Part shown: positions 33,339 to 52,000 of the stretch, piece by piece
Position numbering within the stretch: the first letter of the stretch is position 1
How the letters are laid out: each line of letters begins with the position of its first letter
Assembly: GCA_965224245.1 (NCBI GenBank)
Contig: OZ245046.1
Coordinates: 2,368,001 to 2,432,000 of the forward strand
Direction of reading: 5' to 3'
DNA: 64,000 nucleotides
Source: Candidatus Eiseniibacteriota bacterium
GTDB lineage: Bacteria; Eisenbacteria; RBG-16-71-46; CAZAMP01
Translations under genes and position numbers: made by a program
Notes under the pieces: generated by a model
What the model saw: the letters and a program-made list of their open reading frames with translations, nothing else
Told to the model about the DNA's origin: nothing
Database searches by the model: none

Positions 33339-34337
33339 TTACGGGATGTGGTACCCGACCGAGATCCGGTGGCTCTGACCGAGATCGTCCGAGTACGGTA
33401 CGAACGCGTAGCCGACCCGGAGCTGATCGCGATCCACGCGGAGCCCGAAGCTCAGGTCCTCGGTATCGAGCCCCGTGCGGTAGCCCATGCTGAGCGCCGC
33501 GAGATCCCGGTAGAGGTAACGCGCGCCCATCAGCACGCTGAAGTCCTCTCCGGAGACCTGGCGCCCCTCCAGAGAGACCTCCACCGCCCCGTTGGCGATC
33601 ATCGCCGCCGGGCGGTAGCTGACCCCTCCCTGGACCGTGGTGGGCAGCGAGAAGCTCTCGCCTCCGGCGATGGGACCGGCACCGGACTGGTTGACGATCT
33701 GGACCTGGTTGAACGCGATGTCGTTCGAGAGGTTCTGGACGGATGCACCGAACGAGAACCGCTCCCACCGATACTGCGCCCCGAGATCGGTCGCGATCGT
33801 CTGGGCCACGTGATCCTCGTCGGCGGCGGGGTCTCCGATGAACTCGCGCACGTACTTGAACCCCACGCCCACGCTCAGATCCTCGTTCACCGCATATGCG
33901 TAGCCGAGCGTCAGCGCGAGATCGTAGAAGCCCACGTCGCCGGTGATCTCACCGTTCTCGTCGCGTCCCTCGAGATCGCTCGTGAACAGACCGTTGAACG
34001 AGAGCCCGAGCCCGTGCCGCCCGAACGATCGCGCGACGCCCGCGTACTCCAGGCGCAGGTCGGCGATGTACTCGTTGTGCATCAGATACACGTCGGTGCC
34101 GCCCACGCGCGTCAGCCCCGCCGGATTCCAGTACAGCGCCGTGGCATCGCGGGCCTGGCTCGTGTACGCCTGGCCCATCCCCATCGCGTCGGTCCCGACA
34201 CCGATCTTCAGGAACGCCAGGCCGTTCTCGCCGGCACCGGCCAGCGCCGTCGACGCGCCCAGGGCGAGCGCCGGGAACAAACCGATCGCGACCCGCGCCG
34301 CGGACCGTGCAGTGGCCGTCTGTCGTGTTGCGTTCAT
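33339..34337 (-). CDS. PorV/PorQ-family outer-membrane beta-barrel (FadL-like)
   Basis: Signal peptide; N-terminal motif FLKIGVGTDAMGMGQAY..DATALYWNPAGL; C-terminal LGQSHRISVGY. Confidence 0.85.
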   Translation of the reverse strand: MNATRQTATARSAARVAIGLFPALALGASTALAGAGENGLAFLKIGVGTDAMGMGQAYTSQARDATALYWNPAGLTRVGGTDVYLMHNEYIADLRLEYAGVARSFGRHGLGLSFNGLFTSDLEGRDENGEITGDVGFYDLALTLGYAYAVNEDLSVGVGFKYVREFIGDPAADEDHVAQTIATDLGAQYRWERFSFGASVQNLSNDIAFNQVQIVNQSGAGPIAGGESFSLPTTVQGGVSYRPAAMIANGAVEVSLEGRQVSGEDFSVLMGARYLYRDLAALSMGYRTGLDTEDLSFGLRVDRDQLRVGYAFVPYSDDLGQSHRISVGYHIP

Positions 34338-34401
34338 CGCGCTACTCTTCCCCATCGGTTCGACCGCCGGACGAGGCCCGCCCCGTCGGGCGGAGCCCGC
34401 T

Positions 34402-37400
34402 CTAACGGATCAAGGCCAGCTTTCCGACCTCGGAGTCGGCTCTCCCCCCGGTCGACGCGACCCGGTAGACGTACAGGCCGGGCGCCACCGGCGTCCCGGA
34501 CTCGTTCAGGCCATCCCAGCGCACGAGGTTGTCGACGCCACCATAGACGGTGCCGTCCAGGCGGCGGACCTCGATCCCGGCGGCATCGTAGATCGTGATC
34601 GTCACGCGTGAGACGTCCATCGCCGGCCGGTAGTGGAACGACGTGCCGTCCGGACGCGCCGGATTCGGCTGGCAGTATACGTCGGCGAGCCCGCTGGCCG
34701 CATCGGGCACGTCGGACTCGCTGGCCGCCGTGACCGCGTTTCGCGTGGGTCCGCGACGGAACATGCCCCACTCGTCGCCGCGCGGGCGGTACGGCGCATC
34801 CAGGTTCCAGAGCACCGCGCGCGTCCACAGGACCTCGTCGCGCGATCCGCGTCCCACGTCGAGCGCGAAGACGTCGGTGCGAGCGTCCCCGTCGAAGTCG
34901 CCCACCACCGGGACGGTGCCCGAGCCGACCTGGAGCGGCCACCCGCGAAGCACGCGCGCGTGGGCGTCGTCCCCGCGCAACCCCACCACGAGCCCGTCGC
35001 CGAAGACCGGGATCACGTCGAGACGCCCGTCCCCGGTCACGTCGGCCGCGAGCGGCCCCCGATGCGGCGGCGACAGGTCGTAGTACGTGTCCTGCGGGAC
35101 GTCGAACGTCCGCGGCCAGCCGGCGTCGACCACGCCGTTCAGGTTGATCACGAAGGCCGCGCCGCTGGTGCCGATGGCCAGCACCTCGGCGAAGCCGTCC
35201 GAGTCGACGTCGGCGATCGACACCTCGCTCCCGATCGGACCGCCCACGAACACCGGCCACCCCGCGCGCGGCGAGAGGTGTGAGACGTCACCGTCGTGCC
35301 CGAGCTCCCACGCGAACACGGTGCCGTCCTCGGCCACGGCGACCACGTCGGGGGTGTCGTCGCCGTCCAGATCCCCCCACACCGGCGAGCCGAAGCGCCG
35401 ATCGGGCTCGGTGGGCGCGCGCTCGCGCTGGTCGGTGTCGAGGTCCAGATCCACGAGTAGCATGCCGCCCAGGAGTCCCGCCTGCACGACGACCGGGATG
35501 GTGGCTGCGCCGCCCTGCGTGACCGGCGCCCCGGCGATCCGCCCGACCACCGGGGCCCCGGCGACCGGCCCGGCGATGCGGTACTCGCGGCCGGCGGCCG
35601 CATCGAGATCCCAGCGCCACATCGCGCCCTCGGTCGAATCGGCGCCCGCATCGCGGGAGCCCACGATCAGCTCCAGCGCGGCGTCGTCGTCGACGTCGGC
35701 GAGCACACCCTCCACGCGTCCCAGCGAGTCGACGGCGCCGGCGGGTCGCCGGCGCAGCGCGGTGGCGGTCATCTCGAAGACCGAGATGCCGCCGCGCTCG
35801 CCGATCGTCACGATCGACTGGCCGCCGTCCCCCAGCACGTCACCGACGAGCGGGGATCCGGCCGGCGTGTCGCCGATGTCGCGGTCTCCCCCGATCGCGC
35901 GTCCGTCGGTGTCGAGGACGGTCAGGAGCCCGCTCTCGCCCAGCACCACGAACTCGCTCTCGCGGTCGCCGTCGAGATCGGCCGCCAGCGGATGCGCGCC
36001 GGAGATGGGCTGATCCAGCGTGACCGGAAAGCCGTCGGCGAGCGTGGCCGCGGCGCCGTCGGGCTCCACGAACTCGACCCGGAACGACTGCGTCTCCCCG
36101 GGAGGCCCGATGTCGCTGATGAGCACGCGCCCCGGCGCGCCGAACGAGCTCTCGGAGGAGGGGTTCGTCCAGGGTCCGAACTCGGTGGCGGTGCCTGGAC
36201 GGAACGCGTCGTCCGGGGACCCGAACGACAGGATCGTGTAGGCGTCGAACTCCAGATCCTGGACCCCGTCGGCCTCCTCGAGGTCGATGCCGAGGTGATG
36301 CGGGTCGGCGTTGACCAGGTTGTAGTCGAACGCGAACCGCACCACGGAGTCGTCGATGTGCCAGACGTACAGCCCCTCGGACTCGCGGTACGTGGCGGTG
36401 GGGCTCGTCGGCAAGAGGTTCGGGGTGAAGTAGTCGAACTCGGAGCCTGCGAACGTGTCGCCCCAGAAGTTGAACGAGACGTCGTCCTCGCTTCGACGCG
36501 CCCAGTCGAACGTCCGGTTGTCGTTGGGATCGGGTTGTCGGGCCTCGACCAGGAAGTACTCGTCGGCCGAGATCGGGATGCGGACCGCGAGCGTGTCGGT
36601 GGCCGCGGGGCGATCGGTCTCGATCGGGGTCAGCGTGACCGCGCGCCCGCCCGGCGGCGTGTCGGCGATCGTGACCGGATCGAGCCATCCCGCGTAGTAG
36701 CGCGACCACACGCATGGCTCGCCGGGGACGAAGCCGTTGCCGTTCCACGTGCCGGCGGCCATCAGGCAGAACGCCCCGACGCCCTGCGACGGATCCCCAG
36801 GCGTGGTGTCGTACAGATCGGGCCAGCCGATCATCACGTGACCGAGCTCGTGCGTGAACACGCCCATGAGCCCGAACCGCCACCCGTCCTGTACCTCGTT
36901 CTCGGGGAGGAGCGCGGCCCCGCGCACGTAGACGGTGTCGCCCTCGGCGGTCAGATCGTCGGTCGGGATCCCGGGCACTTCGTAGCCGAGCGAGTCGTTC
37001 AGCACGAACGAGAGCAGATCGCCCGGGAAGAACGCGGACCAGATCTGTGACTTGCTGTCCCGCGCCACGTCGGACTCCTGACCGGAGCCCGAGTGCACGA
37101 CCGCGAAGCCGTTGTAGTCACCGAAGTCCACGTCGGCGTCGGCGCCCGCGACGGCGTCCCAGATCAGCTTCGTGCCGCGTTCGGAGAAGAGATCGTCGTC
37201 TCCGTAGTACGCCATCGGGGCGGGAAGCTTGACCACCGCGTCGTGAACCGTGGCCTCCATCACGTGCTGGCCGAACGACACGTCCTCGTAGTACTGGCGC
37301 ACGTGCTCGAGGTGACGATCGAAGTAGGCCACCAGGAGCTCGTCCTCGGGGATCGGGCCCGCGCCCGTCGTGTCGATGGCCAGCGTGTCGAAGGGCACGT

Positions 37401-37713
37401 CGGCGAACTCGGCCAGCAGGAAGAGTACGCGCGAGGTGTCGGACGGCGCGCCGACCCGGTCGGTGTCGTGATCGAAGTAGCCGAGCGCCAGCTCGGGCGC
37501 CGGCTCGCGAAAGACGGGCCAGTCGGTCTTCTGGGGCACCGGCGGCGCCATGCAGAAGATCGGCCCGCCCACCGGCCCGGCGTGGACGGCCGGTCGAGGT
37601 TCGGGCGCGTCGCCGGCGCGCGGAAGAGGTGTGATCCGGTCCGTGGACGTCAACCAGCCCAGCGCCGAGAGCACGGCGAGCGCCGACGTCAGTAACGTGC
37701 GTCGAAGCATCAT
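34402..37713 (-). CDS. Secreted M6 (immune inhibitor A-like) metalloprotease with FG-GAP/VCBS repeats and a FlgD-Ig-like C-terminal domain
   Basis: HSGSGQES, IWS, GVFTHELGH...PDLYD and LMAAGTWNG; repeated DLDGD/DVDSDG; C-terminus YCQPNP...IYDAAG...WDGLNESG.PVAPGLYVYRV. Confidence 0.88.
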   Translation of the reverse strand: MMLRRTLLTSALAVLSALGWLTSTDRITPLPRAGDAPEPRPAVHAGPVGGPIFCMAPPVPQKTDWPVFREPAPELALGYFDHDTDRVGAPSDTSRVLFLLAEFADVPFDTLAIDTTGAGPIPEDELLVAYFDRHLEHVRQYYEDVSFGQHVMEATVHDAVVKLPAPMAYYGDDDLFSERGTKLIWDAVAGADADVDFGDYNGFAVVHSGSGQESDVARDSKSQIWSAFFPGDLLSFVLNDSLGYEVPGIPTDDLTAEGDTVYVRGAALLPENEVQDGWRFGLMGVFTHELGHVMIGWPDLYDTTPGDPSQGVGAFCLMAAGTWNGNGFVPGEPCVWSRYYAGWLDPVTIADTPPGGRAVTLTPIETDRPAATDTLAVRIPISADEYFLVEARQPDPNDNRTFDWARRSEDDVSFNFWGDTFAGSEFDYFTPNLLPTSPTATYRESEGLYVWHIDDSVVRFAFDYNLVNADPHHLGIDLEEADGVQDLEFDAYTILSFGSPDDAFRPGTATEFGPWTNPSSESSFGAPGRVLISDIGPPGETQSFRVEFVEPDGAAATLADGFPVTLDQPISGAHPLAADLDGDRESEFVVLGESGLLTVLDTDGRAIGGDRDIGDTPAGSPLVGDVLGDGGQSIVTIGERGGISVFEMTATALRRRPAGAVDSLGRVEGVLADVDDDAALELIVGSRDAGADSTEGAMWRWDLDAAAGREYRIAGPVAGAPVVGRIAGAPVTQGGAATIPVVVQAGLLGGMLLVDLDLDTDQRERAPTEPDRRFGSPVWGDLDGDDTPDVVAVAEDGTVFAWELGHDGDVSHLSPRAGWPVFVGGPIGSEVSIADVDSDGFAEVLAIGTSGAAFVINLNGVVDAGWPRTFDVPQDTYYDLSPPHRGPLAADVTGDGRLDVIPVFGDGLVVGLRGDDAHARVLRGWPLQVGSGTVPVVGDFDGDARTDVFALDVGRGSRDEVLWTRAVLWNLDAPYRPRGDEWGMFRRGPTRNAVTAASESDVPDAASGLADVYCQPNPARPDGTSFHYRPAMDVSRVTITIYDAAGIEVRRLDGTVYGGVDNLVRWDGLNESGTPVAPGLYVYRVASTGGRADSEVGKLALIR

Positions 37714-37828
37714 GTTGAGTCCCGCTTCACGAGATGGGCATCGGGGAGCGCCCGGCCGCGGCGCCGGGACACCTTCCCGGTGTCCGGCGCAATCGCAACG
37801 TGAGCAAGCGCTTACCTAGGCCTGGGCG

Positions 37829-37857
37829 AGTCTAGAGAGGCATACACCGGGGGTCAA
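37829..37857 (-). promoter_or_regulatory. Sigma70-type promoter of the M6 protease-PorV operon
   Basis: Minus strand TTGACC-N17-TAGACT. Confidence 0.55.
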
Positions 37858-37909
37858 CGTTTTGCTCCGGCGGGACGGGAGTAAATCGGGGGTGGAAGGG
37901 GCGGCCCCG

Positions 37910-39310
37910 TCAGCGACGGGACCGACCACCGGACGAGCGATCGCGCCCCGAGGACTTCGATCGCCCGCTGCGTCCGCGATCCCCGCTCTTGCGATCGTCC
38001 CGCCGCGGGGGCGTGGCCGACTTTCGCGGCTTGTCCCCCCGGGAGTTCCGGGGTCGATCGCCGACGTTTCGTGGACGATCGTCCCGCGACGGCTGCACGT
38101 CTCGACCGGAATCGTCGCGCTTGGGACGTGCTCCGCGATCCCGCTTGCCCCGCCCGGCATCCCGATCACGGTCGTCACGATCGCCGCGGTCCACGTCTCG
38201 TGCGCCGCGATCGCCGCGATCTCCCCGGTCGACGTTCCGGTCGCCCCGATCTCCCCGATCGGGCCGGGTTCCGCGGTCATCCCGGCCACGCGAGTCCAGA
38301 GCGCCGTCGCGATCGCGAACCGGCTTCGTGGTGCCCCGTACGTCGTGCGCGTCGGACACGTGGTCGCCGCGTGTCCACGAGGGATGGTCCTTGCGGTCCT
38401 TCAGATGATCGCGCTCCCTGGGCGACTTGCCTGCGAACGTCCGGATCAGACGATCCGGACGACCGTCCTCCCACCGATCCTTGGACGACCACTTGGTCTT
38501 GTAGGAGCGGTAGCGGTGCGGCGCGTTCGCGCGCTTCCAGTAGTAGAAGCGCGGCTGGCAGCGTGCCGGATAGAGCGCGTCGGTCCACCAGACGTCCACG
38601 CGCACGTCGAACACCCGGCACGCGTCCCGGTACGGGTCGTACCATCCGCCGTAATGACAGTCGTTGCACACGTAGCGCGGATAGTACCGGTGCGTGCGGA
38701 CGCCCCAGTACACGGTCCGGAAGCCCACCCGGTGCGGCGCGCACCCGCGGGGCAGAATCGAGGCCCGGAGCTCGGCGAACGCCAGGTACGGGTCGCCGGT
38801 GACGAACCCGAACTGCACGATGGGGCTGCGAGAGGCGCCGAGGTAGTACGGCCTGGTGCGGTGGCCGTGCGCGTAGAACCAGTCGGGAAAGTACGGGTCC
38901 AGCGGATAGGCGCACGCCAGCGCCTGCACGTACACCATGCCCTCCAGCGGTCCCACCTCGAGAAACGGCGCGTTGACCACGTACGACCGTCCGCCCCGGA
39001 GGTAGTGCGGGTCGTGCGGATGGTACGGGTAGATCAGATGCGCCATGCCGTCCACGTCGACGCCGTAGACGACGACGTACGAGTCGCGATGGGGACGGAC
39101 GGTCAGCTGGACCACGTCACCGGTGTCGTAGGTCGGATCCTCGCCGCCCGCGTCGACCCAGACGTCGACGCCGTACGCGTCGCCGTAGCCGCGGTCGTGA
39201 ACGGCATCCTGATAGCCGATGCCGGCCATCGCCGGCGCGGCGCCCGCCACGAGTGCGAGCGCGGCGGCCAGCGTGCCGGCCGCCCTCGAGAGCGTCGGAG
39301 TGCGCATCAT
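37910..39310 (-). CDS. Secreted DUF4384-like protein with a Tyr/Cys-rich middle and an Arg/Asp/Gly-rich low-complexity tail
   Basis: Signal peptide; VDVWVD..YDTGDVVQL...YVVVYGVDVDG..HLIYP resembles DUF4384; CNDCH; DRGDRGD repeats. Confidence 0.75.
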   Translation of the reverse strand: MMRTPTLSRAAGTLAAALALVAGAAPAMAGIGYQDAVHDRGYGDAYGVDVWVDAGGEDPTYDTGDVVQLTVRPHRDSYVVVYGVDVDGMAHLIYPYHPHDPHYLRGGRSYVVNAPFLEVGPLEGMVYVQALACAYPLDPYFPDWFYAHGHRTRPYYLGASRSPIVQFGFVTGDPYLAFAELRASILPRGCAPHRVGFRTVYWGVRTHRYYPRYVCNDCHYGGWYDPYRDACRVFDVRVDVWWTDALYPARCQPRFYYWKRANAPHRYRSYKTKWSSKDRWEDGRPDRLIRTFAGKSPRERDHLKDRKDHPSWTRGDHVSDAHDVRGTTKPVRDRDGALDSRGRDDRGTRPDRGDRGDRNVDRGDRGDRGARDVDRGDRDDRDRDAGRGKRDRGARPKRDDSGRDVQPSRDDRPRNVGDRPRNSRGDKPRKSATPPRRDDRKSGDRGRSGRSKSSGRDRSSGGRSRR

Positions 39311-40128
39311 GATGCACCTCCTCCGAAGTCGCGCAGCGGCCGCTTGTGCGTGGCCCCGCTCTTGCGCAGCTCGGGATTGCCGCGATCGGTCTGGTAGCCC
39401 CAGTCCAGCTCGATGAAGTCCTCGTCCAGATCGACGACGCGGACCTTCGCGTAGTTGTTGTCGCGCGTCCAGACCACGTAGACGTGCCCCACGATCGCCT
39501 CCACGATCCCCGACGGGCTCCAGCCCTCGTCGGGCGCCCAGGTGATCGCGTCGAAGGACGCGTAGCCTGCATCCTGGATGTCGGTCGCGTAGTCGGGAAC
39601 GGCCAGGTAGCCGACACCGTCGATCCAGTCGAAGTAGACGTCGGCGCGCTCGTCGTCCCAGCCGACTCGCTGCTCGCGCGAGAAGTCGAACGCCGAGTCC
39701 TCGGGGTAGTCGCCGTCGGCCTCTTCCAGCTGAAGGCCGAACCCCTCGGGCCGCGGCGTGTCGTAGATGATGCGGTTGTTGAGGTCGCTCTCGTTGCCGG
39801 CGTAGTCGATGGCGGTGACTCCGTAGTAGTACGTGTCTCCGTTGTCGAGGTCGTCGTGCACGAAGTCGGCGTCCTCGGTGAACCCGAGCAGGTCGTACGG
39901 CCCGTGCGGCTCGCGACTCACGTAGACGCGATAGCCGTCCAGGTCGGGCTCCTGGTTCTCGATCCAGTCCAGATAGACGACCCGGTCACCGGTCGTCGAC
40001 GTCACACCGACCGGCGGCAGCGGCGCGCGGCGGTCGGACTCGTGATGGTGGTCGGTACCGGTGTGATTGATCTCGCAGCCGAGCGCGAGCACCGCACCCA
40101 CGAGTGTCAGATGGAGTCGCGTGTTCAT
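39307..40128 (-). CDS. Lipoprotein with a fibronectin type III domain
   Basis: Lipobox LALGC; PLPPVGV..GDRVVYLDW...DLDGYRVY...TYYYGVTAIDYAGNESD; AAGGAGG RBS; ATGA overlap with the next gene. Confidence 0.85.
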   Translation of the reverse strand: MNTRLHLTLVGAVLALGCEINHTGTDHHHESDRRAPLPPVGVTSTTGDRVVYLDWIENQEPDLDGYRVYVSREPHGPYDLLGFTEDADFVHDDLDNGDTYYYGVTAIDYAGNESDLNNRIIYDTPRPEGFGLQLEEADGDYPEDSAFDFSREQRVGWDDERADVYFDWIDGVGYLAVPDYATDIQDAGYASFDAITWAPDEGWSPSGIVEAIVGHVYVVWTRDNNYAKVRVVDLDEDFIELDWGYQTDRGNPELRKSGATHKRPLRDFGGGAS

Positions 40129-40289
40129 CGGGGTGCCTCCTTTCGGGTTCGAAGAACGAAAGGATGCAGGGGCATCGTCGGCCTGCCTCCACCGTTGAAC
40201 GAAACCCTTACGCCATCACCGCCGAGGCGGCGATGGAGGGTGGGTAAGTGTTTCGCGAAATGCCCCTGCATCCTTGTGCCCGGGTGCAT

Positions 40290-40305
40290 TGCAGGGGGCA
40301 TGCCA
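40290..40305 (-). promoter_or_regulatory. Sigma54 -24/-12 promoter of the lipoprotein-DUF4384 operon
   Basis: Minus strand TGGCAT-GCCCC-CTGCA (GG-N10-GC); IHF-like TTCAATCGATTG at about 40350-40361. Confidence 0.65.
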
Positions 40306-40564
40306 GTGGGGCGAGAGCGGACTTCTCAGGCTTGCAACTAACTATGTGCCAATCGATTGAACGAAACGGGACTGCTCCGGGGACCGCTCCGGGAGAGGTG
40401 GGTCGAGCCTGGATCCGTGACCGTCGCGCCTCGGTGTCGCACCGCCGCCACAGGCGTGCCTGCAACACACCCACCCGCCGATACGCGAGCCACTACCGTG
40501 GACGACGAGGACGCGGGGCGCGGGCCGCAGGGCGTTCGGGCGAAGGGCGAGGAGCACGGAGGGC

Positions 40565-40817
40565 AAAAAACAAGGGACCCGATCCGCGGCGGCCACAGCC
40601 TGGACATCCCCCATCTCGCTGGTCATAACCGCCTGGATCAGATCCCTCGCAAATCGTGCCGAGGTATGTCGTGTCTGCGCCGAAGAATTCGAACCGGCCG
40701 GCCGCAACGAACATCTGGACGCTCAATCCGTCGCTCGCCGCGTGTAATCGGGGCCTGATCAGCGTTGACCGGCCGGTCCGAAGTCCATCTTCGGAGGTTC
40801 CCAGCTCCACAGACGTT
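40565..40817 (-). ncRNA. Putative sigma54-transcribed structured small RNA (about 250 nt)
   Basis: Starts about 12 nt after a sigma54 motif. A long rod pairs 40814-40808 with 40679-40673 and includes a 16-bp helix 40782-40767/40703-40688. A second long hairpin (40648-40572) ends in GTTTTTT. No convincing ORF with an RBS. Confidence 0.6.
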
Positions 40818-40827
40818 CTCTGATCAT

Positions 40828-40843
40828 TGCATCCGGCATGCCA
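40828..40843 (-). promoter_or_regulatory. Sigma54 -24/-12 promoter of the putative sRNA
   Basis: Minus strand TGGCAT-GCCGG-ATGCA (GG-N10-GC). Confidence 0.65.
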
Positions 40844-41047
40844 GGTGCGCCGATCGCGCCGAGACACATCGAACACAACGCTAACGCATTCGAAACGGGC
40901 ACGTTACACGTGGGTTTCATTCCGCTGCGAGGGGCTCGATCTCCGGCTCTTCCGGGCACGAATTCGCAAGGAAGTTTCCAGCCACATCTCGACGCCGGCA
41001 ACGTGCGCGTTTGCAGCGTCTTGGGTTGGAAAGATTCTTTAGAGGCG

Positions 41048-41064
41048 TATCAAGAGACTTGATA
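41048..41064. promoter_or_regulatory. 7-3-7 palindrome, candidate activator-binding site
   Basis: TATCAAG-AGA-CTTGATA in the AT-rich spacer about 205 bp upstream of the 40843 promoter. Confidence 0.4.
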
Positions 41065-41076
41065 GCTCCAGGGGGG

Positions 41077-44000
41077 TCAGTCGATGGCGAACGTGCGGAC
41101 CTTGGCCAGCAGGGTGGGATACGAGATGGCCAGACGCCTCGCCGCGGCGCTCTTGTTCCCACGGCACTCGCGGAGCGCGTCCACGATCATCTGCCGCTCG
41201 AGACGCTGCACGGCCGATCGCATCGAGCCGTTCGTGGCGCCGTTCGCGACGCCGGCCGGCCCGACCAGCTCGGGCGGCAGGTGCGCGACACCGACCGGCT
41301 CTCCCTCGTCGGCCAGGACGAGCATCCGGCGGACAGCCTTCTCCAGCTCGCGTACGTTGCCCGGCCATGCGTAGTCGTGGAGCAGTCGCATCACGTCGGG
41401 CGACAGGCGCGGCACGTCTCGTGACATCTCGGCCGAGAACGTCGCCATGAAGTGGTCCACGAGAGCGTCGATGTCCTGGCGCCGCTCTCGAAGCGGCGGG
41501 ATCACGATGGAGATGTCGTTGAGCCGGTAGTAGAGATCCTCCAGGAACGCGTTCTCCGCGATCAGCGTCTTCAGGTTGGCGTTCGTGGCGGACACGATCC
41601 GCACGTCGACGCGCTTCCAGCGCGTGGCCCCGACCGGTCGGATCTCGTGGTGATCGAGCACGTGCAAGAGCTTGGCCTGCACCGCGCGCGTCGTCTTGTC
41701 CACCTCGTCTAGGAACACGGTCCCGCCTTCGGCCTCTTCGAAGAGCCCGCGCTTCTCGCGTATCGCACCGGTGAACGCGCCCGCCATGTGCCCGAACAGC
41801 TCGCTCTCCAGGAGATGCTCGGGTATCGCGGCGCAGCTGATCGGTACGAACGGGGCCTCTCTTCGCCTGCCCGTATCGTGCACCGCGCGCGCGATCAGGC
41901 CCTTGCCGGTGCCGGTCTCGCCGCGGACGAGCACGCTCGCCGGGCTGTCGGACACCTTGCGTACGGTCTGGAGCAGCGCCTCGAACGCCGGGCTGGCCGA
42001 CACGATCGGCCGCGTGAGGCGGCTCGCGTCGATGCCGCTCTCCAGCCGGGCGCGCTCGGAGAGCATCTGCGTGCGTTCGAGCGCCAGCGCCGAGATCGAC
42101 GCCAGCTCGGCCAGGAGCGCGATCAGCTTCAGATCGGCCTGTCGGTAGGCGCCCACCACGTGCTGCGCGCGGCGGTCCACGTAGAGGAGCCCCCAGATGT
42201 CCTGGGGCAGGCACAGCGGCGCGATCGCCAGGCCGGACACGTCCTCGACGTCCCCAACGTCGGCGTCGCCGGGAGCGCGGATCGCCGGGTACCCCGACGC
42301 CATCGACGCGGCGACCGCCGGCTGGATGCGCCCGAGCAGCTCGCTGGCCTGCGCGGCGGTCGTCCCGATCGCACCCACCACCGTCAGGTCCTCGGTGGTC
42401 GGCCCCTGAGCCAGAAACGCGCGATCGGAGCTGGTGCGGCGAAGCACCATTCGCAGGAGGGCATCGACGGCGCTCTCCGGGCTTTCGGACGTCTTCAGGA
42501 GCCGATGGAGCTCGCGCGTCGGGCTGAGGATGTCCGAGCCCTCGAGCGACGTCCGCGCGCGCTGGTCGAGCCGAGCCTTCAGACGCATCTGCTCCTCGAG
42601 CAGCGGGCTCTCCTCTGAGGCCTCGACGTATCGTGCGGCCGACCGGAGGAGGTTCTCGGCATCGTCGAGGGGACCGGTCCGGATGCGGTCCTCGACCGCC
42701 GCCAGCGCCACCTCGGCGAGGTGTCCGGGGACGTCGAGCGTCTCGAAGATCGCGCGCGCCTCCGTCAGGTGATGCTGGATCTCCGGATGAGCGTCGGTCG
42801 ACTCGCGGGCCACGTCGAGGCACACGCGCGCCATCGACAGGTGCGTGCGGCCGACCTCATACCGGGCGCCGAGCTTGCGGAACGTCTCGAGAACCGCGCC
42901 CAGCATCGCGTGGCCGTCCTCGCAACGTCCCGCGCGGGCCCGGCACAGACCCAGCACGCGCCGGGCGGCGGCCGCCTCGGTCAGGTCTCCGAGGCTCTCG
43001 GCGATCTCGATCGTGCGCTCGGCCGTCTCGGTGGCCGCGTCCAGATCCCCCAGTGCGAAGTGGGCTTCGGCCAGGCGCCGGCCGATCTCCGAGACAAGAT
43101 CGCCCGCCGGAGCCAGCTCTCGAGCGTCGGCGAGCGCTACGAGCAGCCGATCACGCCCGCGCTCGGGCTGGCCGGTGGCCACCTCGAGCTCGCCGCGGAA
43201 CTCTTCGACGAGGATGCGCTCGCGCGTGTAGCCGTTGGCCTCGGCGATCGCGTCCGCCTCCTCCAGGGTGGCGCGGGCGGCGCCGAACCGCCGCGACCGC
43301 ATGTCGAGGACGCCACGCGCGATCAGCGACTTGACCAGTCGACCGCGATGATCGATCTCGCGCGCGATCTGCGTGGCGCGCTCGAGCTGGCGCCGCGCCT
43401 CGGGCCAGTCTCCCAGACGCGAGTGAATGATGCCGAGATTGAGGCAGATCGAGGCCTTTCGCCCGTAGTCGCCCACGTCCTCGAGTATGTCGAGCGCACG
43501 GTGCAGGAACGATAGGGCATCGCGAAGGTGGTTCGACTGCTTCCGATTGAGTCCGAGGTTGTTGTACGCGTGCGCGATACCGCGGCGATCTCCGACCCGC
43601 TCGTACAGACCCAGCGCCAGATCGAACGACTGCTCGGCATCGCCGGTTCGCCCCTGTCGCTCGAGGGCGTGACCGATCGCCAGGTAGAGTCGCGCCTGGA
43701 ATCGCACGACCTCGGAGCTGGTCGTCTCCCGCAGGAGACTGAGCGCCTCGCGTGCCGCGTCGATGGCCGCCTGGTACTGGCCCGACATGGATCCCACGAT
43801 GGCATGGCGGCCGATGATGCGGGCACGGGTGACGTCGTCTGGATGAGGGCCGGCGAAGGCCTCGGCCTCCGCGATCGCGGCGCGCGCCATCCCGAGCTCG
43901 CCCCGGGAGGCGTGGCAATCGACGATGCGCAGCACGACGTCGACGCCGTCGGGGTTCGGGCCCTCGGGGGCGCCCAGCGGCTCGCGAGCGGCCAGGTAGT

Positions 44001-44145
44001 GGCCCAGCGCCTCGCCGTGATTGTCGGCGGACCGGTGGAGATCACCCAGACGCAGGAGGTGATCGAACGTGCTGGGGTCGACGGCACGCTCGCGCGTCGC
44101 TCCCTCGCCCGCCGCTTCGGTTGGGAAACCCCTCCCGACATCCAT
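41077..44145 (-). CDS. Sigma54 enhancer-binding protein with N-terminal TPR repeats, a GAF-like domain, AAA+ and HTH (1022 aa)
   Basis: About 500 aa of TPR-like helices (AHAYNNLG, ASICLNLGIIH, YEVGRTHL); GAF-like APL...WGLLYVD; motifs GETGTGK, ESELFGH, GAFTGA, FLDEVD, DLYYRL and WPGNVREL; HTH. Confidence 0.93.
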   Translation of the reverse strand: MDVGRGFPTEAAGEGATRERAVDPSTFDHLLRLGDLHRSADNHGEALGHYLAAREPLGAPEGPNPDGVDVVLRIVDCHASRGELGMARAAIAEAEAFAGPHPDDVTRARIIGRHAIVGSMSGQYQAAIDAAREALSLLRETTSSEVVRFQARLYLAIGHALERQGRTGDAEQSFDLALGLYERVGDRRGIAHAYNNLGLNRKQSNHLRDALSFLHRALDILEDVGDYGRKASICLNLGIIHSRLGDWPEARRQLERATQIAREIDHRGRLVKSLIARGVLDMRSRRFGAARATLEEADAIAEANGYTRERILVEEFRGELEVATGQPERGRDRLLVALADARELAPAGDLVSEIGRRLAEAHFALGDLDAATETAERTIEIAESLGDLTEAAAARRVLGLCRARAGRCEDGHAMLGAVLETFRKLGARYEVGRTHLSMARVCLDVARESTDAHPEIQHHLTEARAIFETLDVPGHLAEVALAAVEDRIRTGPLDDAENLLRSAARYVEASEESPLLEEQMRLKARLDQRARTSLEGSDILSPTRELHRLLKTSESPESAVDALLRMVLRRTSSDRAFLAQGPTTEDLTVVGAIGTTAAQASELLGRIQPAVAASMASGYPAIRAPGDADVGDVEDVSGLAIAPLCLPQDIWGLLYVDRRAQHVVGAYRQADLKLIALLAELASISALALERTQMLSERARLESGIDASRLTRPIVSASPAFEALLQTVRKVSDSPASVLVRGETGTGKGLIARAVHDTGRRREAPFVPISCAAIPEHLLESELFGHMAGAFTGAIREKRGLFEEAEGGTVFLDEVDKTTRAVQAKLLHVLDHHEIRPVGATRWKRVDVRIVSATNANLKTLIAENAFLEDLYYRLNDISIVIPPLRERRQDIDALVDHFMATFSAEMSRDVPRLSPDVMRLLHDYAWPGNVRELEKAVRRMLVLADEGEPVGVAHLPPELVGPAGVANGATNGSMRSAVQRLERQMIVDALRECRGNKSAAARRLAISYPTLLAKVRTFAID

Positions 44146-44163
44146 CGTTGCATGGCCCCTTGC

Positions 44164-44237
44164 TCGATGAGGTTCGCGGTGCCCCCGGCCGGGGCATCGA
44201 TCTCGGGCGGCTCCCCCGCGAACCTCGGGAGCCGCCC
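44164..44237 (-). promoter_or_regulatory. Candidate RNA pseudoknot or switch in the peptide-activator intergenic region
   Basis: An 11-bp stem (44205-44215/44227-44237) has an 11-nt loop (44216-44226) that is the exact complement of 44169-44179. A nested hairpin lies at 44180-44196. Confidence 0.55.
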
Positions 44238-44299
44238 CGCACCGGGTCCGACGCTCACCCCGAGTTGAGCGAACGCGCGACCACCGGTGCGGACCTGCG

Positions 44300-44626
44300 T
44301 CAGAGCGTCAGCAAGCTCATCTCCGCCAGCGTGATCACGATCCCCACGATCTCCGGGCACGGATCATCGACCGCCTCGATCGTGTTGCCCTCCGGCATCA
44401 GATCGTAGTCGTCGGGATCCCCGCTGCCGCCGGTGGGCTGCTGGAGTACGCCCGCGCCTGGCGTGACGACCGTGCAGTTGACGTCGTCGCCAGAGTTCGT
44501 GGCAGGGTCGTCGCCGGCGCCGGCCGGGGTGATCCACAGGAACAGCGCGAGGAGTGCGAGGAACACACACGATCGGATCGACGACGGGGTGCGCAGGCAC
44601 GCAGGCAAGTTTCCACGAAGCTCCAC
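44300..44626 (-). CDS. Small secreted acidic pre-peptide (108 aa) with GDD/GDPDD motifs and a hydrophobic C-terminus
   Basis: GGGAGGA RBS then GTG 44626. The signal-like VFLALLALFLWITPAGA is followed by GDDPATNSGDDVNC...GGSGDPDDYDLMP...IVGIVITLAEMSLLTL. Has its own sigma70 promoter. Confidence 0.7.
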   Translation of the reverse strand: MELRGNLPACLRTPSSIRSCVFLALLALFLWITPAGAGDDPATNSGDDVNCTVVTPGAGVLQQPTGGSGDPDDYDLMPEGNTIEAVDDPCPEIVGIVITLAEMSLLTL

Positions 44627-44726
44627 TGAGTCCTCCCTGGCGGAATCCGACACGTATGTCGACTGGCTCCCGGATCGCCTTAACCCCGCTGAGGCGGCCG
44701 AGATCGTGGAGTTGGGAACACTGTCG

Positions 44727-44755
44727 ACTTTACCAGCAACGCCGAAATCCGTCAA
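44727..44755 (-). promoter_or_regulatory. Sigma70-type promoter of the peptide-activator operon
   Basis: Minus strand TTGACG-N17-TAAAGT. Confidence 0.7.
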
Positions 44756-44999
44756 TTCCCGGCGTTTGGGCCGCCCTGTATGATCGTCGGCAGACGGGCG
44801 GGACTTCCAGAGATCCCCGCCGAGTGGGGACCGTGCGCACGCGCGCACGGATGTGGTACACCTCCCGCCGCGAGGATCCGGGGACTCGGGCCGCGGGACA
44901 CCCGCCGGCGCGAGCGTCCAGGACGACCCCTGAACGCACACGGACGCCGAGAGGCGCCAGGACAGGAGCTTCGCCGGCCCGCGCCGGAGAGACCCCACG

Positions 45000-47246
45000 A
45001 TGAGTACGAACATCTACGACCGAGCCCAGGCCGTCGACCGCCGGTTCACGGACTTCGTCGAGCGCTGGAGCGGGTCCCCCCGCCCCCGGCCCGACCTGGA
45101 CGCTCCGGTCCGGTCTCCCTCGCCGCTGACCGGGCGAGAGCTTCTGGAGCTCTTCGAGTCGCAGATCATCTCGCGCCATCTGGACCTGATGTCCCGCATC
45201 CTGCGCGCGCGTGACGCCAGCTTCTACACGATCGGGAGCTCGGGACACGAGGGCAACGCCGCGCTCGGGCGCCTGACGCGTCCGACCGACCCCGCATTCC
45301 TGCACTACCGGAGCGGCGGGTTCATGGCGGAGCGGTCACGGCGCAACCAGCACGCCGACGCCGTGTACGACGTGCTGCTGGCACTCGTGGCGAGCTCGGA
45401 CGATCCGGTCGCCGGCGGGCGCCACAAGGTGTGGGGCAGCGTCGAGCTGTGGGCGATTCCGCAGACGAGCACGATCGCCAGCCATCTGCCAAAGGCGGTG
45501 GGCATGGCCATCGGCGTGCGCCGTGCGCTCAAGATGGGGATCACGCCGCCGGTGCCGCGCGACAGCATCGTCGTGTGCTCGTTCGGCGACGCGAGCGTGA
45601 ACCACTCCACCGCGCTCGGTGCGTTCAGCGCGGCGGCACGCGCGGTGTACCAGCAGATCGCGTGTCCGATCCTGTTCGTGTGCGAGGACAACGGGCTGGG
45701 CATCTCGGTGGCCACGCCGTCCCGGTGGGTCGAGGACGCCTTCGGACCCCGTCCCGGTCTGGAGTACTTCCAGGCCGACGGGCTGGACATCGTGGACATG
45801 CACCGGGTGACCGCCGAGGCCGTATCGGTATGCCGGTCACGGGCCACGCCCGTGTTCCTGCACGTGAGGTGCGTGCGGCTGATGGGCCACGCCGGGAGCG
45901 ACGTCGAGCTGGAGTACCGCTCCCTGGCCGACGTCGAGGCGACCGAGGCGCGCGATCCGATCCTCGCCACCGCACGCATCGTGCTCGAGGCGGGTCTCTG
46001 CCAGCCGTCCGAGGTGACCGCGATGTACGAGCGCATCCGCGCGCGTGTCGAGCTGGCGGCCGAGCGCGCGCTGGCGCGCCCCCGGCTCACCGACCGCCGG
46101 ACGATCATCGCGCCGCTCGCACCGTACACACCCGACGCGGTCGCGGCCGAGGCCACGCGCAAGGCCGCGCCGGAACGGCGCGAGGAGGCGTTCGGCGGCG
46201 AGGAGAAGCTGCCCGAGGCGGCCGGCCCCAGGACGATGGCCATGCAGATCAACAGCGCACTCACGGATCTTCTGGCCAAGCATCCCGAGGCGGTCCTGTT
46301 CGGTGAGGACGTGGCACGAAAGGGTGGGGTCTACCACGTGACCGCCCGGCTTCTCGCGCGCTTCGGGGCTTCGCGCGTGTTCGACACGATCCTCGACGAG
46401 CAGACCATCCTCGGGCTGGCCCAGGGGTTCGGCTACTCCGGGCTGTTGCCGTTTCCGGAGATCCAGTACCTCGCCTACTTTCACAATGCGTGCGATCAGA
46501 TCCGCGGAGAAGCCTGCTCGATGCAGTTCTTCTCGAACGGCCAGTTCCGAAACCCGATGGTGCTCCGGATCGCATCCCTGGGCTACCAGAAGGGGTTCGG
46601 CGGACACTTTCACAACGACAACAGCATCGCGGCGCTGCGCGACATCCCGGGGCTCGTGATCGCGTGTCCGTCCCGGGGCGACGACGCGGCCGCGATGCTG
46701 CGCACCTGTGCGGCCCTGGCCAAGGTCGACGGACGCGTGGTCGCCTTCCTGGAGCCGATCGCCCTCTACCACCGCAAGGATCTCCACGAGCCCCGGGACG
46801 GCGCGTGGCAGTTCCCGTATCCCGCACCCGGCACCGCCGTCCCCCTCGGGTCGAGCCGCGTGTACGACGAGGAGGCGACCGACCTCGTGTTCGTGACCTA
46901 CGGCAACGGGGTGCCGCTCTCGCTTCAGGCCGCACGCACGCTCGGCGAGCGTCACGGCGTGGCCGCCCGCGTCGTGGACCTGCGCTGGCTGAACCCGCTC
47001 GACGGCGGAGTGATCGCCGAGCATGCGCGCGCGTGCGGCAACGTCGTCGTCGTGGACGAGGGACGGCGCACCGGCGGCGTCAGCGAGGCCATCATCACCG
47101 CGATCGTGGAGGCGGGCGTCGAGGGCGTCCGGGTCCGTCGCGTCGTCGGCGAGGACACCTACATCCCGCTGGGACCGGCCGCGAGCCTGGTCCTGCCGTC
47201 GGTGGAGGAGATCGTGGCCGCGGCGCTGGCGCTCGGGGAACGCTGA
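45000..47246 (+). CDS. Fused E1 alpha/beta ThDP-dependent 2-oxoacid dehydrogenase (branched-chain-like)
   Basis: Motifs YTIGSSGHEG, LHYRS, GDAS..N, GHAGSD, GEDVARKGGVY, EIQY and GGHFH. Substrate uncertain. Confidence 0.9.
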   Translation: MSTNIYDRAQAVDRRFTDFVERWSGSPRPRPDLDAPVRSPSPLTGRELLELFESQIISRHLDLMSRILRARDASFYTIGSSGHEGNAALGRLTRPTDPAFLHYRSGGFMAERSRRNQHADAVYDVLLALVASSDDPVAGGRHKVWGSVELWAIPQTSTIASHLPKAVGMAIGVRRALKMGITPPVPRDSIVVCSFGDASVNHSTALGAFSAAARAVYQQIACPILFVCEDNGLGISVATPSRWVEDAFGPRPGLEYFQADGLDIVDMHRVTAEAVSVCRSRATPVFLHVRCVRLMGHAGSDVELEYRSLADVEATEARDPILATARIVLEAGLCQPSEVTAMYERIRARVELAAERALARPRLTDRRTIIAPLAPYTPDAVAAEATRKAAPERREEAFGGEEKLPEAAGPRTMAMQINSALTDLLAKHPEAVLFGEDVARKGGVYHVTARLLARFGASRVFDTILDEQTILGLAQGFGYSGLLPFPEIQYLAYFHNACDQIRGEACSMQFFSNGQFRNPMVLRIASLGYQKGFGGHFHNDNSIAALRDIPGLVIACPSRGDDAAAMLRTCAALAKVDGRVVAFLEPIALYHRKDLHEPRDGAWQFPYPAPGTAVPLGSSRVYDEEATDLVFVTYGNGVPLSLQAARTLGERHGVAARVVDLRWLNPLDGGVIAEHARACGNVVVVDEGRRTGGVSEAIITAIVEAGVEGVRVRRVVGEDTYIPLGPAASLVLPSVEEIVAAALALGER

Positions 47247-47297: not shown

Positions 47298-47663
47298 TCA
47301 GAGAAGATAGTCCTCGAGTTCGTCACTGACGACCCGTGTCCGCGGGCGCGATGCCGGCGACCCGTCCGCCGCCGCGCGAGACGGTGGCGGAAGCGCCGCG
47401 AGCCGCCGACCGGACAGGATGGCCAGGATGCTCGCAACCTCGGGCGAGGCGTCCGGCGGCGGGCATCGCACGAGGGTCTTGCGCCCGTCGCGCACGGCGG
47501 ACACGAGGCCGGTCGCTTCGAGCTGCCGGATGTGGCGGGAGACGGCGGGCTGGGTGATTCCCAGCTCGTCGGCCAGGGCCTGTACGTGACGATCCCCGCC
47601 GAGCAGGAGCTTCACGATCGCGAAGCGGTGCGGATCGCCGAGCGCCTTGAAGAGACGATGCAT
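47298..47663 (-). CDS. ArsR/SmtB family transcriptional regulator
   Basis: FKALGDPHRFAIV...LGITQPAVSRHIRQLEATGLV...RDGRK. Confidence 0.88.
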   Translation of the reverse strand: MHRLFKALGDPHRFAIVKLLLGGDRHVQALADELGITQPAVSRHIRQLEATGLVSAVRDGRKTLVRCPPPDASPEVASILAILSGRRLAALPPPSRAAADGSPASRPRTRVVSDELEDYLL

Positions 47664-50604: not shown

Positions 50605-50617
50605 AAGGAACCCCGGC

Positions 50618-52000
50618 ATGAACGACCGCGCGCCCCGACCGTACGTGATCCTCGTCGTGGACGACGAGGCGTCGGTGCGTCGATCGGTGATCGGTTTCCT
50701 CGAGGACGAGGGATACCGAACCCTCGACACCGAATCCGGACCCGAGGCCCTGGCCGCGCTCGAGAGCAACCAGGTCGACCTGGCGCTGCTCGACGTGTGG
50801 ATGGAGGGCATGGACGGTCTCACGCTTCTGGACGAGATCCAGCAGCGGCAGCCCGAGCTGCCGGTCATCATGATGAGCGGCCACGGCTCGATCGACCTCG
50901 CCGTTCGCGCGACGCGCCGGGGCGCCTACGACTTTCTCGAGAAGCCGCTCTCCCCCGAGAAGCTCGCGATCACCCTCAACCGCGCGCTCGACCACCAGAC
51001 GACGCGCCGCGCCCAGGCGATCCTCCGCGAGGAGCTCGGCGCCACGCGCGTGCTGATCGGCGAGAGCCCCGCGATGACGAAGCTGAAGGAGGACATCCAC
51101 CGCGTGGGCGGCACGGACGGGCGCGTCCTGATCAGCGGCGAGAACGGAACCGGCAAGGAGCTCGTGGCCCGCGCGATCCACGAGCTCAGCGTTCGCCGCT
51201 CCGGGCCGTTCGTGCGCATGAACTCCGCGGCCATCCCGCGCGATCTCGTCGAGAGCGAGATGTTCGGGCACGAGAAGGGCGCATTCACCGGCGCCACGGC
51301 GCGCAAGCTCGGGAAGTTCGAGATCGCCGATCGCGGCACGCTATTCCTGGACGAGATCGGCGACATGGAGGCGTCGGCCCAGGCGAAGCTCCTGCGCGCG
51401 CTGGAGACCGGCGAGGTCGAGCGCGTGGGCGGCACGCAGCCCGTTCGCTTCGACGTGCGCGTGCTCGCGGCCACGAACAAGGACCTCAAGCGCGAGATCG
51501 CCGAGGGTCGGTTCCGGGAGGACCTGTACTATCGCCTCGCGGTCGTCCCGCTGGTGGTGCCGCCGCTGCGTGAGCGCGGCGACGACGTCGTCGTGCTGGC
51601 GCGACACTTCCTGACGCACTACTGTCAGGAAGCCGGCGGCGTGGTGAAGCGCTTCTCGGAGTCCGCACTCGACTATCTGCGCCAGCACCGCTGGCCCGGC
51701 AACGTGCGCGAGCTCCGGAACCTCATCGAGCGGCTGTCGATCATGGTGGATCACGACGAGGTCGACACACGTGACCTCGAGCCCCTGCTGGACCCGATCG
51801 GGATCGATGCACCCGACGTCGCCCCGGTCACGAACGGAGACGGTACGCTGAAAGAGCGACTGGAAACCGAGGAGCGGCGCATCCTGCGCGACGAGCTCAT
51901 GCGGACGGGCTGGAACGTCTCACAGGCCGCGCGGCAGCTGGGCATCGATCGCGCGAGCCTGCACCGCAAGATCAAGCGGTTCGGACTCTCCAAGCCATGA
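50618..52000 (+). CDS. Sigma54-dependent response regulator, NtrX-like
   Basis: Motifs VVDDE, LLDVWM, MMSGHG, EKP, GENGTGKE, GAFTGA and FLDEIGD; HTH. Confidence 0.94.
   Translation: MNDRAPRPYVILVVDDEASVRRSVIGFLEDEGYRTLDTESGPEALAALESNQVDLALLDVWMEGMDGLTLLDEIQQRQPELPVIMMSGHGSIDLAVRATRRGAYDFLEKPLSPEKLAITLNRALDHQTTRRAQAILREELGATRVLIGESPAMTKLKEDIHRVGGTDGRVLISGENGTGKELVARAIHELSVRRSGPFVRMNSAAIPRDLVESEMFGHEKGAFTGATARKLGKFEIADRGTLFLDEIGDMEASAQAKLLRALETGEVERVGGTQPVRFDVRVLAATNKDLKREIAEGRFREDLYYRLAVVPLVVPPLRERGDDVVVLARHFLTHYCQEAGGVVKRFSESALDYLRQHRWPGNVRELRNLIERLSIMVDHDEVDTRDLEPLLDPIGIDAPDVAPVTNGDGTLKERLETEERRILRDELMRTGWNVSQAARQLGIDRASLHRKIKRFGLSKP

Follow-up and report, generated by a model that had tools for sequence, protein, structure and literature searches.

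A small gene with a predicted Sec signal is paired with a TPR-GAF-sigma54 activator throughout the phylum of Candidatus Eiseniibacteriota

Sigma54 activators are known to be controlled by phosphorylation, by small ligands or by partner proteins. Peptide signalling through cytoplasmic receptors built of tetratricopeptide repeats (TPR) is treated in one survey as characteristic of Gram-positive Firmicutes and the mobile elements they carry (PMC10075063). That source also defines the signature of such RRNPP systems: a Sec-secreted pro-peptide of 10-100 amino acids by default (21-50 in validated cases) and a receptor of 250-500 amino acids with TPRs, encoded by neighbours separated by -50 to 191 bp (PMC10075063). 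Here we describe a small gene located at positions 44300..44626 (minus strand) of a 64,000-nucleotide stretch of DNA from a Candidatus Eiseniibacteriota bacterium (contig OZ245046.1, positions 2,368,001 to 2,432,000), hereafter the window, and its relationship with the sigma54 activator encoded immediately downstream. The activator contains TPRs, and its distance from the small gene (154 nt in the window, 43-288 nt across 83 loci) agrees with the RRNPP arrangement. The proteins themselves are larger: the activator has 1022 amino acids instead of 250-500, and the small protein 108 (85-126 in its family), so that some members fall below 100 amino acids and all of them above the validated range. 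No published description of TPR-GAF sigma54 activators with such a partner, or of sigma-54 in Eisenbacteria, was found in the literature searched. The strict pairing of both genes in nearly every genome, often in several private copies, makes the module a candidate new input route into sigma54 transcription and raises the possibility of peptide communication in a diderm.

The small gene and its signals are as follows:

44300..44626, minus strand: coding sequence of the small, putatively exported protein P0001, 108 amino acids (GC content at third codon positions 0.85, positional homologues, substitution ratios, profile matches)
44631..44637, minus strand: ribosome-binding site GGGAGGA, 4 nt 5' of the GTG start (44626-44624)
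44727..44755, minus strand: sigma70-like promoter TTGACG-N17-TAAAGT with a TG-extended -10 element, within a spurious open reading frame (ORF) of 237 codons

The frame 44626..44300, which ends with EIVGIVITLAEMSLLTL at the C terminus of P0001 and a stop codon at 44302-44300, is a genuine gene of the expressed type, because codon-position GC content, ribosome-binding site, promoter, purifying selection and positional homologues (83 of 83 loci versus 0 of 3000 controls) all concur. GC content at the three codon positions is 0.65/0.50/0.85, close to that of the neighbouring activator gene (0.75/0.48/0.88); the upstream 387-nt part of the 237-codon ORF gives 0.61/0.65/0.77, which is not coding-like. 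The sigma70-like promoter is the single site of its kind in 43900-45200, against a mean of 0.0 in 50 shuffles. The ratio of nonsynonymous to synonymous substitution rates (dN/dS) ranges from 0.19 to 0.54 in 12 pairs and stays below 1 along the full length of the gene; for the N terminus of the activator it is 0.025-0.21 in 8 of the same 12 pairs. These ratios indicate that the small protein is under constraint, yet evolves several times faster than the adjoining activator. Other gene-calling pipelines also predict family members as genes, the sole name given being 'hypothetical protein'. A first-pass annotation, made by a model from the letters of the stretch, had placed a strong ribosome-binding site and a GTG start here, and had held that the gene is concealed in a 237-codon ORF spanning its own promoter; both statements proved correct, with GGGAGGA at 44637-44631 and the promoter (44755-44727) inside the extension. 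A chance ORF in GC-rich DNA could well be nested in a longer spurious frame, as this one is, and could be matched in single-sequence searches by nothing other than itself, as is the case for P0001; given the evidence above, this explanation has practically no probability.

The gene that follows, and the DNA between both, are:

44146..44299, minus strand: spacer from the small gene to the activator, 154 nt, with an 11-bp GC hairpin at about 44237-44205 without a T-run (fold z = -1.96, marginal)
41077..44145, minus strand: sigma54 activator, 1022 amino acids, with a TPR superhelix (about 24-510), a GAF-like domain (about 556-681), an AAA+ module with GAFTGA, and HTH_8 (Pfam, AlphaFold2, Foldseek, hmmsearch versus PDB)

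In Pfam, the activator is matched by Sigma54_activat (PF00158, 1.1e-62), by TPR_12 in six stretches (1.2e-27) and by HTH_8 (PF02954, 1.2e-9), while the GAF match, at 0.022, is below the cut-off. Both GAFTGA and GETGTGKG can be read in its translation, as expected of a sigma54 enhancer-binding protein, and rpoN is present in the genome. The AlphaFold2 model of residues 1-682 (mean predicted local distance difference test score, pLDDT, 88.4) shows about 12 TPR-like helix pairs (24-510) followed by the GAF-like domain (556-681).

Full-length relatives of the activator were found in all 21 genomes first searched. Its N-terminal 682 residues have matches with E up to 1e-30 in 191 of the class's 206 genomes. 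The phylum consists of the same 206 genomes, 196 of which match at E up to 1e-25. Thirty loci were examined first, and three (L036, L059 and L062) were dropped as their upstream DNA was cut off. All 27 remaining loci, that of the window included, have a same-strand ORF of 95-126 amino acids ending 78-185 nt before the activator match; it starts with ATG (GTG in the window) behind a GGAG-type site, and encodes 1-4 Lys/Arg residues, a hydrophobic stretch and a small-residue cleavage-type site. At 40 of 40 further loci, from families of the phylum unseen before, a signal-bearing ORF of 85-124 amino acids ends 58-288 nt before the match. Two of these 40 are paralogous activators (G000:C1:3028081-3031167 in the same genome as the window, and one in G005), each with its small ORF. 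Searched with the N terminus of the own paralogue, 24 of the 206 genomes yielded a second set of matching loci. Small ORFs were then predicted beforehand for 16 such loci, termed type B, in other genomes and at places distinct from the main copy; a signal-bearing ORF of 98-123 amino acids is present at 16 of 16, with the motif [GA]DP[DN]x[FI] (e.g., ADPDTFQID or GDPDDIAIN; one has NPDDF). In total, an ORF of 85-126 amino acids lies just upstream of a TPR-GAF-sigma54 activator at 83 of 83 loci in 67 genomes, covering all 18 families of the phylum (family f2 through L032 alone). The same detector, applied to 3000 random places of the own chromosome, returned 26 signal-like ORFs of 80-130 amino acids, none of them with the motif. 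The genome contains 36 sigma54 activator genes, and just the two with the 710-residue TPR-GAF N terminus have such an ORF; one of the other 34 has a signal-like ORF, without the motif. The second module of this genome lies outside the window:

G000:C1:3028081-3031543 (L105:570-4044), minus strand: paralogous module with a 1032-residue TPR-GAF-sigma54 activator, 31% identical, preceded at 46 nt by a signal-bearing ORF of 100-109 amino acids with GEPDE

The small gene and the activator have been inherited and duplicated as a unit throughout this 206-species phylum. A functional link between the small protein and the downstream activator is strongly supported, because their adjacency is strict, phylum-wide and paralogue-specific.

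Neighbours further upstream vary: an ArsR-like ORF is found in the window (47298-47663, minus strand, an ArsR-family helix-turn-helix gene), in G001 (L025) and in G004 (L026), and a Ppx/GppA-like ORF in L028, L031 and L033.

The family is hard to reach by conventional searches. Pfam-A and NCBIfam returned no family for P0001 at E up to 1; a Pfam/NCBIfam scan of the 27 members gave stray matches only, in one or two members each, at E of at least 0.013. A word search of 5.8 billion proteins retrieved P0001 itself and nothing else, no second copy was detected by sequence in the own genome (next best E 0.28), the best match in 60 relatives (E 0.008) was at chance level and non-syntenic, and a search of genome contigs for related loci gave one weak, unrelated TPR match. 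In the ESM atlas, the nearest clusters are hypothetical proteins of 111-112 amino acids (score 0.86) whose commonest taxon is Candidatus Eiseniibacteriota, which serves as a lead only. Profiles were more productive. In a set of 1.84 billion representatives, the profile built from 27 sequences picked up 51 proteins (E up to 1e-3), of which 50 have 88-165 amino acids and one, a weak match, has 2483; 48 of the 49 retrieved carry G-D-x-D (the truncated P0023 has V-D-N-D). A hidden Markov model of 83 sequences, run against 59396 ORFs of the own genome, gave exactly two matches (E 9e-9 and 7e-7; next 0.03). The profile of a 65-sequence alignment, A3, matches 89 of the 206 genomes, and all its strong matches adjoin the activator by coordinates; it is insensitive, as most of family f9 (motif GEPD) was missed and was recovered by position. 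The family is unannotated and fast-evolving. With conservation limited to four residues and the overall architecture, a phylum-wide gene escapes both single-sequence searches and standard family libraries.

Those residues emerge from two alignments. In A1 (27 sequences), mean column identity is 22% and three columns, G69, D70 and D72, are invariant; they are again invariant in A3, which combines 39 of the 51 profile-matched proteins with 26 loci, and which omits P0002-P0006, P0016 and P0035 (repeat locus sequences), P0021, P0023 and P0039 (truncated), P0048 (long N terminus), P0050, and L040 (near-identical to L039). The core [GASN]-[DE]-[PNGSA]-[DNI] was read at 82 of the 83 loci, 25-60 codons ahead of the stop. 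Residue counts over these 82 are G 66 and A 12 at the first position, D 65 and E 17 at the second, P 70 at the third and D 75 at the fourth, and the consensus can be written as G-[DE]-P-D followed by a mostly acidic and then an aromatic or aliphatic residue. The motif varies between families of the phylum: GEPD in f9 (one SEPD), GDPN or GDPID in f15, GDSDQY in f18, GVPDE or ADPD in f10, and a substituted proline (GDNDG, GDGDG) in f8. All the acidic motifs first reported in the middle of P0001 (AGDDP, SGDDV, SGDPDDY and VDDP) are there. The suggestion that repeated GDD motifs form the functional core finds no support: a single copy, G69-D70-P71-D72, is conserved among the acidic repeats. As to the check proposed at first, whether only the GDPD core is conserved in relatives, one such motif is the only constant sequence feature of the family besides the signal peptide. 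Two motif copies occur in 12 of 65 members.

Tandem duplicates of the type GDPDQYAN...GDPDQYA are seen in f7, f12 and f5 (e.g., L038, L039 and L093-L095). In f12 and f5, one copy lies directly at the predicted signal-peptide cleavage site.

P0001 can be divided into three parts:

44516..44626, minus strand: predicted Sec signal peptide, residues 1-37, with putative cleavage after A-G-A (heuristic; AlphaFold2 helix 14-32)
44411..44422, minus strand: conserved core motif G69-D70-P71-D72 in a disordered middle region (G, D and D invariant in A1 and A3)
44306..44356, minus strand: C-terminal helix, residues 91-107 (AlphaFold2)

The N terminus combines a basic n-region with a hydrophobic stretch and, at residues 34-37, PAGA, so that the features of the Sec-like signal ending in AGA near residue 37, as first described, are present by heuristic. 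The same heuristic (net-positive n-region, hydrophobic h-region, small residues at -3/-1) is passed by 83 of 83 members; the calls are our own, and their n-region and h-region criteria were also used for ORF selection, which makes the figure partly circular. With the 65-sequence alignment, AlphaFold2 predicted helices at 14-32 (signal) and 91-107 and left residues 33-90 unstructured (mean pLDDT 65.5). Across the family, Gly (17%), Pro (12%), Asp (10%), Ser (9%) and Thr (8%) prevail in the middle region, whose net charge is negative in 62 of 83 members. Leu, Arg, Trp and Phe abound in the last 22 residues, which include at least two aromatic ones in 70 of 83 members and carry a net positive charge in 63 of 83. 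The two Cys residues noted at first are Cys51 and Cys90 in the mature part (Cys10 and Cys20 are additional ones in the signal region); they are not conserved, mature Cys being absent in 49 of 65 members. By eye, no PEP-CTERM, lipoprotein or Tat signal was seen: the C-terminal helix is not followed by a basic tail, and neither a lipobox nor a twin-arginine consensus was noticed. The product is predicted to be a 108-residue pre-protein in which a Sec-type signal peptide precedes a disordered body, acidic and rich in Gly, Pro, Ser and Thr, and an amphipathic helix forms the C terminus.

Few members of the family share the transmembrane-like character of the P0001 C terminus. With a transmembrane-like segment defined by a Kyte-Doolittle mean of at least 1.6 over 18 residues, P0001 (1.64 in its C-terminal window) is one of 8 such members among 65; the segment contains charged residues in 61 of 65 and is elsewhere in the family an amphipathic, aromatic/Arg-rich helix. 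This bears on the idea of a membrane-tethered anti-activator, in which the N- and/or C-terminal hydrophobic segment would sit in the inner membrane and the activator be held or released there, by a PspA/PspBC-like logic. The 1.64 window of P0001, together with its hydrophobic N terminus, would suit such a protein; the family as a whole would not, since a (-3,-1) cleavage-type site is found in 83 of 83 members and since an N-in topology would place the motif on the periplasmic side, with no more than a few residues facing the cytoplasm. We consider a tether very unlikely. The first-pass proposal of a signal precursor or membrane-tethered modulator of the downstream activator is therefore retained as to the link with the activator (83 of 83 adjacent) and weakened as to the tether.

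In 22 of the 27 loci, a TTGAC-N16-18-TAnnnT site precedes the small ORF by 129-274 nt, and a sigma54-like box was found upstream of this ORF in none of the 27. No terminator-like site was found in the spacer of the window, and the small gene and the activator are presumably co-transcribed. Such an arrangement could also serve a cis-acting upstream ORF or a secretion monitor similar to SecM, MifM or VemP, whose translation and co-translational export, possibly with pausing at Asp-Pro-Asp, would control translation of the activator or read-through into it, with no function in trans. The signal peptide and the short conserved internal motif fit this possibility, as do the position (in every case immediately ahead of the activator and on its strand, at 43-288 nt from the start of the match), the GC hairpin in the own spacer and the presence of an own copy for every paralogous activator. 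However, the motif lies 25-60 codons before the stop, too distant for a stalled ribosome to expose the next ribosome site; the spacer folds marginally better than its shuffles (z = -1.96); and the C-terminal helix is conserved in character, with dN/dS below 1 over the whole length. To our knowledge, the known secretion monitors precede Sec, YidC or SecDF genes and not transcription factors. A purely cis-acting role is thus judged unlikely.

Downstream of the activator, the following elements were identified:

40565..40843, minus strand: sigma54-like box TGGCATGCCGGATGC (40843-40829), followed by a predicted structured RNA of about 250 nt (40817-40565) ending in a T-run
L025:1009-1258 (minus strand) and L026:4728-4970 (plus strand): counterparts of the structured RNA
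40291..40305, minus strand: second sigma54-like box TGGCATGCCCCCTGC, 163 nt before the lipoprotein gene, conserved in G001 as TGGCACGGGAGGTGC
33339..40128, minus strand: likely target operon (family matches, conserved neighbourhood), made up of the next four genes
39307-40128, minus strand: lipoprotein, 273 amino acids
37910-39310, minus strand: DUF4384 protein
34402-37713, minus strand: M6-type metalloprotease with FG-GAP and a FlgD_ig end (TIGR03296, 129.5 bits, cut-off 110.8)
33339-34355, minus strand: PorV/PorQ-family outer-membrane protein (153 bits, cut-off 90)

A perfect TGGCAC-N5-TTGC sequence is present downstream of the activator in 4 of 9 loci (L026, L029, L031 and L032), and a near-perfect one in two more, including the window. 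Allowing up to two mismatches, the whole window contains 41 such sequences versus 40.0 expected, which is chance level; the downstream boxes would gain their meaning solely from position and conservation. A 23-nt block of the structured RNA is identical in the own genome, G001 and G004 (three genomes, two families, f1 and f4), and RNAalifold predicted 62 pairs, 10 of them with compensatory changes in a long helix; the sequence ends in a hairpin with a T-run. Rfam gave no match on 40000-45100 at E up to 1. These data point to a candidate sigma54-dependent structured RNA directly behind the activator.

The leader of the lipoprotein gene (40129-40560, minus strand) contains complementary blocks, GGATGCAGGGGCAT ... 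ATGCCCCTGCATCC and CTTACC ... GGTAAG, that are common to G001, and it may be a structured 5' leader. The sole perfect TGGCAC-N5-TTGC match in the window is TGGCACTGCGCTTGC at 17542-17556 (minus strand). At 48955-53250 (plus strand), genes for a HAMP histidine kinase, a response-regulator sigma54 activator and an Omp85-family protein follow in a row.

A homologue of the lipoprotein is encoded in 59 of 61 genomes. Its position relative to the activator was compared by eye for the 55 best matches, after dropping that of G053. In 43 of these 55, both genes share contig and strand, with the homologue downstream; of the remainder, nine are on other contigs or in a genome without a main-copy activator match, one is at 14 kb, and for two the place of the activator was not listed. 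The nearest NCBIfam model to the M6-type protein is a type IX secretion system (T9SS)-dependent M6-like inactivated metalloprotease, with a score under the cut-off of that model. The operon 33339-40128 looks like a type IX secretion-like set of cargo and shuttle, judging by these family matches, and it is probably the target of the activator.

The nature of this operon suggests a further explanation for the small protein, namely that it is an envelope component without contact with the activator: a partner, plug, chaperone, substrate or inhibitor of the PorV-family protein or of the M6-type protease, encoded beside the regulator through co-expression only. It would agree with the heuristic Sec-type signal in 83 of 83 members, with a Trp/Phe/Arg-rich amphipathic C-terminal helix typical of membrane-interface binding, and with the lipoprotein, PorV-family and M6 genes of the conserved neighbourhood, and it is free of the topology problem considered below. 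It would leave unexplained why paralogous activators are also paired one-to-one (16 of 16), and a structural envelope protein would not be expected to retain merely a four-residue motif. Moreover, the main-copy lipoprotein gene is 0.7-4.5 kb from the activator, with its own sigma54-type boxes between, whereas the small gene is driven by a sigma70-type promoter (sigma54 boxes, 0 of 27) and therefore stands outside the regulated operon. We regard this alternative as somewhat unlikely.

The closest relatives of the TPR domain suggest what the small protein could do instead. The best PDB folds in Foldseek are LGN/Pins TPR domains in complex with peptides of Inscuteable, NuMA or Frmpd4 (target-normalised TM-score 0.65-0.71, E about 1e-9), and hmmsearch versus PDB gave Pins/LGN (5e-24 to 1e-21) and kinesin light chain (KLC; about 1e-20) ahead of Rap phosphatase (3e-9). 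The inner groove of LGN holds an extended Insc peptide via Asn residues, and invariant Arg residues contact its Glu-X-Glu (EPE) motif (PMC3438535). Kinesin light chain TPRs recognise short 'Y-acidic' motifs, with a Tyr flanked by acidic residues (PMC6214655). By analogy, G-[DE]-P-D-[DE]-[YF] would be the type of ligand that LGN and KLC TPR grooves take, a resemblance and not a proof.

Our tentative preference, held with somewhat less than even confidence, is that P0001 is exported as a pro-peptide or modulator and that the TPR groove of its own activator reads its acidic-proline motif, in an RRNPP-like manner without being a member of that family. The small gene would be transcribed together with the activator from the sigma70-type promoter, and the protein would be exported by Sec and then processed. 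Its motif would be bound as an extended peptide in the concave groove of the LGN/kinesin-light-chain-type superhelix, which it would reach either after re-import as a peptide or as a precursor failing export (export sensing). Binding would control how active the AAA+ module is at the nearby downstream sigma54 promoters, those ahead of the structured RNA and the PorV/M6-protease envelope operon. The 'processed signal precursor' of the first-pass annotation remains the leading interpretation, because of the Sec-type signal, the disordered body, the single conserved short motif, the fast evolution and the motif-binding type of TPR on the neighbour. The own genome contains four genes for Opp/Dpp-type binding proteins (SBP_bac_5), which is permissive for re-import only.

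Several points weigh against this pro-peptide or modulator. The signal peptide and the positive-inside rule would place the motif in the periplasm and the activator is cytoplasmic, so that an unproven re-import step or an un-exported precursor pool is required; the locus lacks a conserved peptide importer, processing protease or exporter. The small proteins (85-126 amino acids) are longer than the validated RRNPP pro-peptides (21-50, PMC10075063), their motif is internal, and their conserved C-terminal helix is unexplained by the model. The conserved Asn residues of the activator repeats (NNLG, LNLG) are also generic consensus residues of TPR_12, and the loss of the proline in f8 (GDNDG, GDGDG) makes the parallel with E-P-E imperfect. 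Adjacency and co-duplication would also be expected of a purely cis-acting or co-regulated partner, and the correlation of the pairwise distances of both proteins (r = 0.89) would be given by shared ancestry alone.

The pro-peptide reading can be extended to a full peptide-pheromone circuit of a diderm. In it, a peptide cut out around G-D-P-D-D-Y would be taken up again and dock in the LGN-like groove of the activator, which would then fire the neighbouring sigma54-dependent small RNA and the PorV/M6-protease (type IX secretion-like) operon, thus joining RRNPP-type sensing to a LuxO/Qrr-type output through private channels. This extended version is doubtful, and we would give it only a minor chance; if true, the paralogous pairs would provide two or three private signalling channels per genome.

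Compared with described systems, the module resembles each in part. SecM, MifM and VemP share with it a small upstream ORF with an N-terminal export signal ahead of a regulated gene. In those monitors, the arrest motif is at the very C terminus and the downstream gene encodes a Sec, YidC or SecDF component; here, the motif is 25-60 codons before the stop and the downstream gene encodes a transcription activator. In the pairs ZraP with ZraSR, CpxP with CpxAR and PspA with PspF, a small envelope or peripheral protein adjoins a regulator and feeds back on it, ZraR and PspF being sigma54 activators. A small protein encoded beside a regulator is also what is observed here, but those proteins act via a membrane histidine kinase or are cytoplasmic, while the present module has no kinase and no sequence similarity to them. 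LuxO of Vibrio is a sigma54 activator that integrates a cell-cell signal and drives the adjacent, sigma54-dependent Qrr small RNA genes, with which a sigma54-type box and a conserved, predicted structured RNA of about 250 nt after the activator can be compared. LuxO is a phosphorylated response regulator without TPR or an adjacent pro-peptide gene, and dependence of the RNA on the activator is here a prediction.

As in the RRNPP(A) peptide quorum-sensing pairs of Firmicutes (Rap-Phr, NprR-NprX, PlcR-PapR and AimR-AimP), the gene for a small protein, here a putative Sec-exported pro-peptide, adjoins that of a cytoplasmic TPR regulator, and pairs diversify and duplicate together. Tandem motif copies, in 12 of 65 members here, are likewise found in some pro-peptides (PMC11343458). 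The differences are that the receptor carries GAF, AAA+ sigma54 and HTH_8 modules, that its TPR domain is nearer to LGN/KLC than to Rap (1e-22 versus 3e-9), that the motif of the small protein is internal and accompanied by a C-terminal helix, and that the host is a diderm (Omp85 and PorV genes in the window), re-import being only proposed. LGN/Pins and KLC are eukaryotic cytoplasmic scaffolds without a transcription output, and likeness to them indicates a type of ligand, not actual binding. They are nonetheless the closest to the TPR superhelix of the activator in both fold and sequence, and the extended acidic short motifs that they bind in a concave groove recall the G-D-P-D-D-Y of the small protein.

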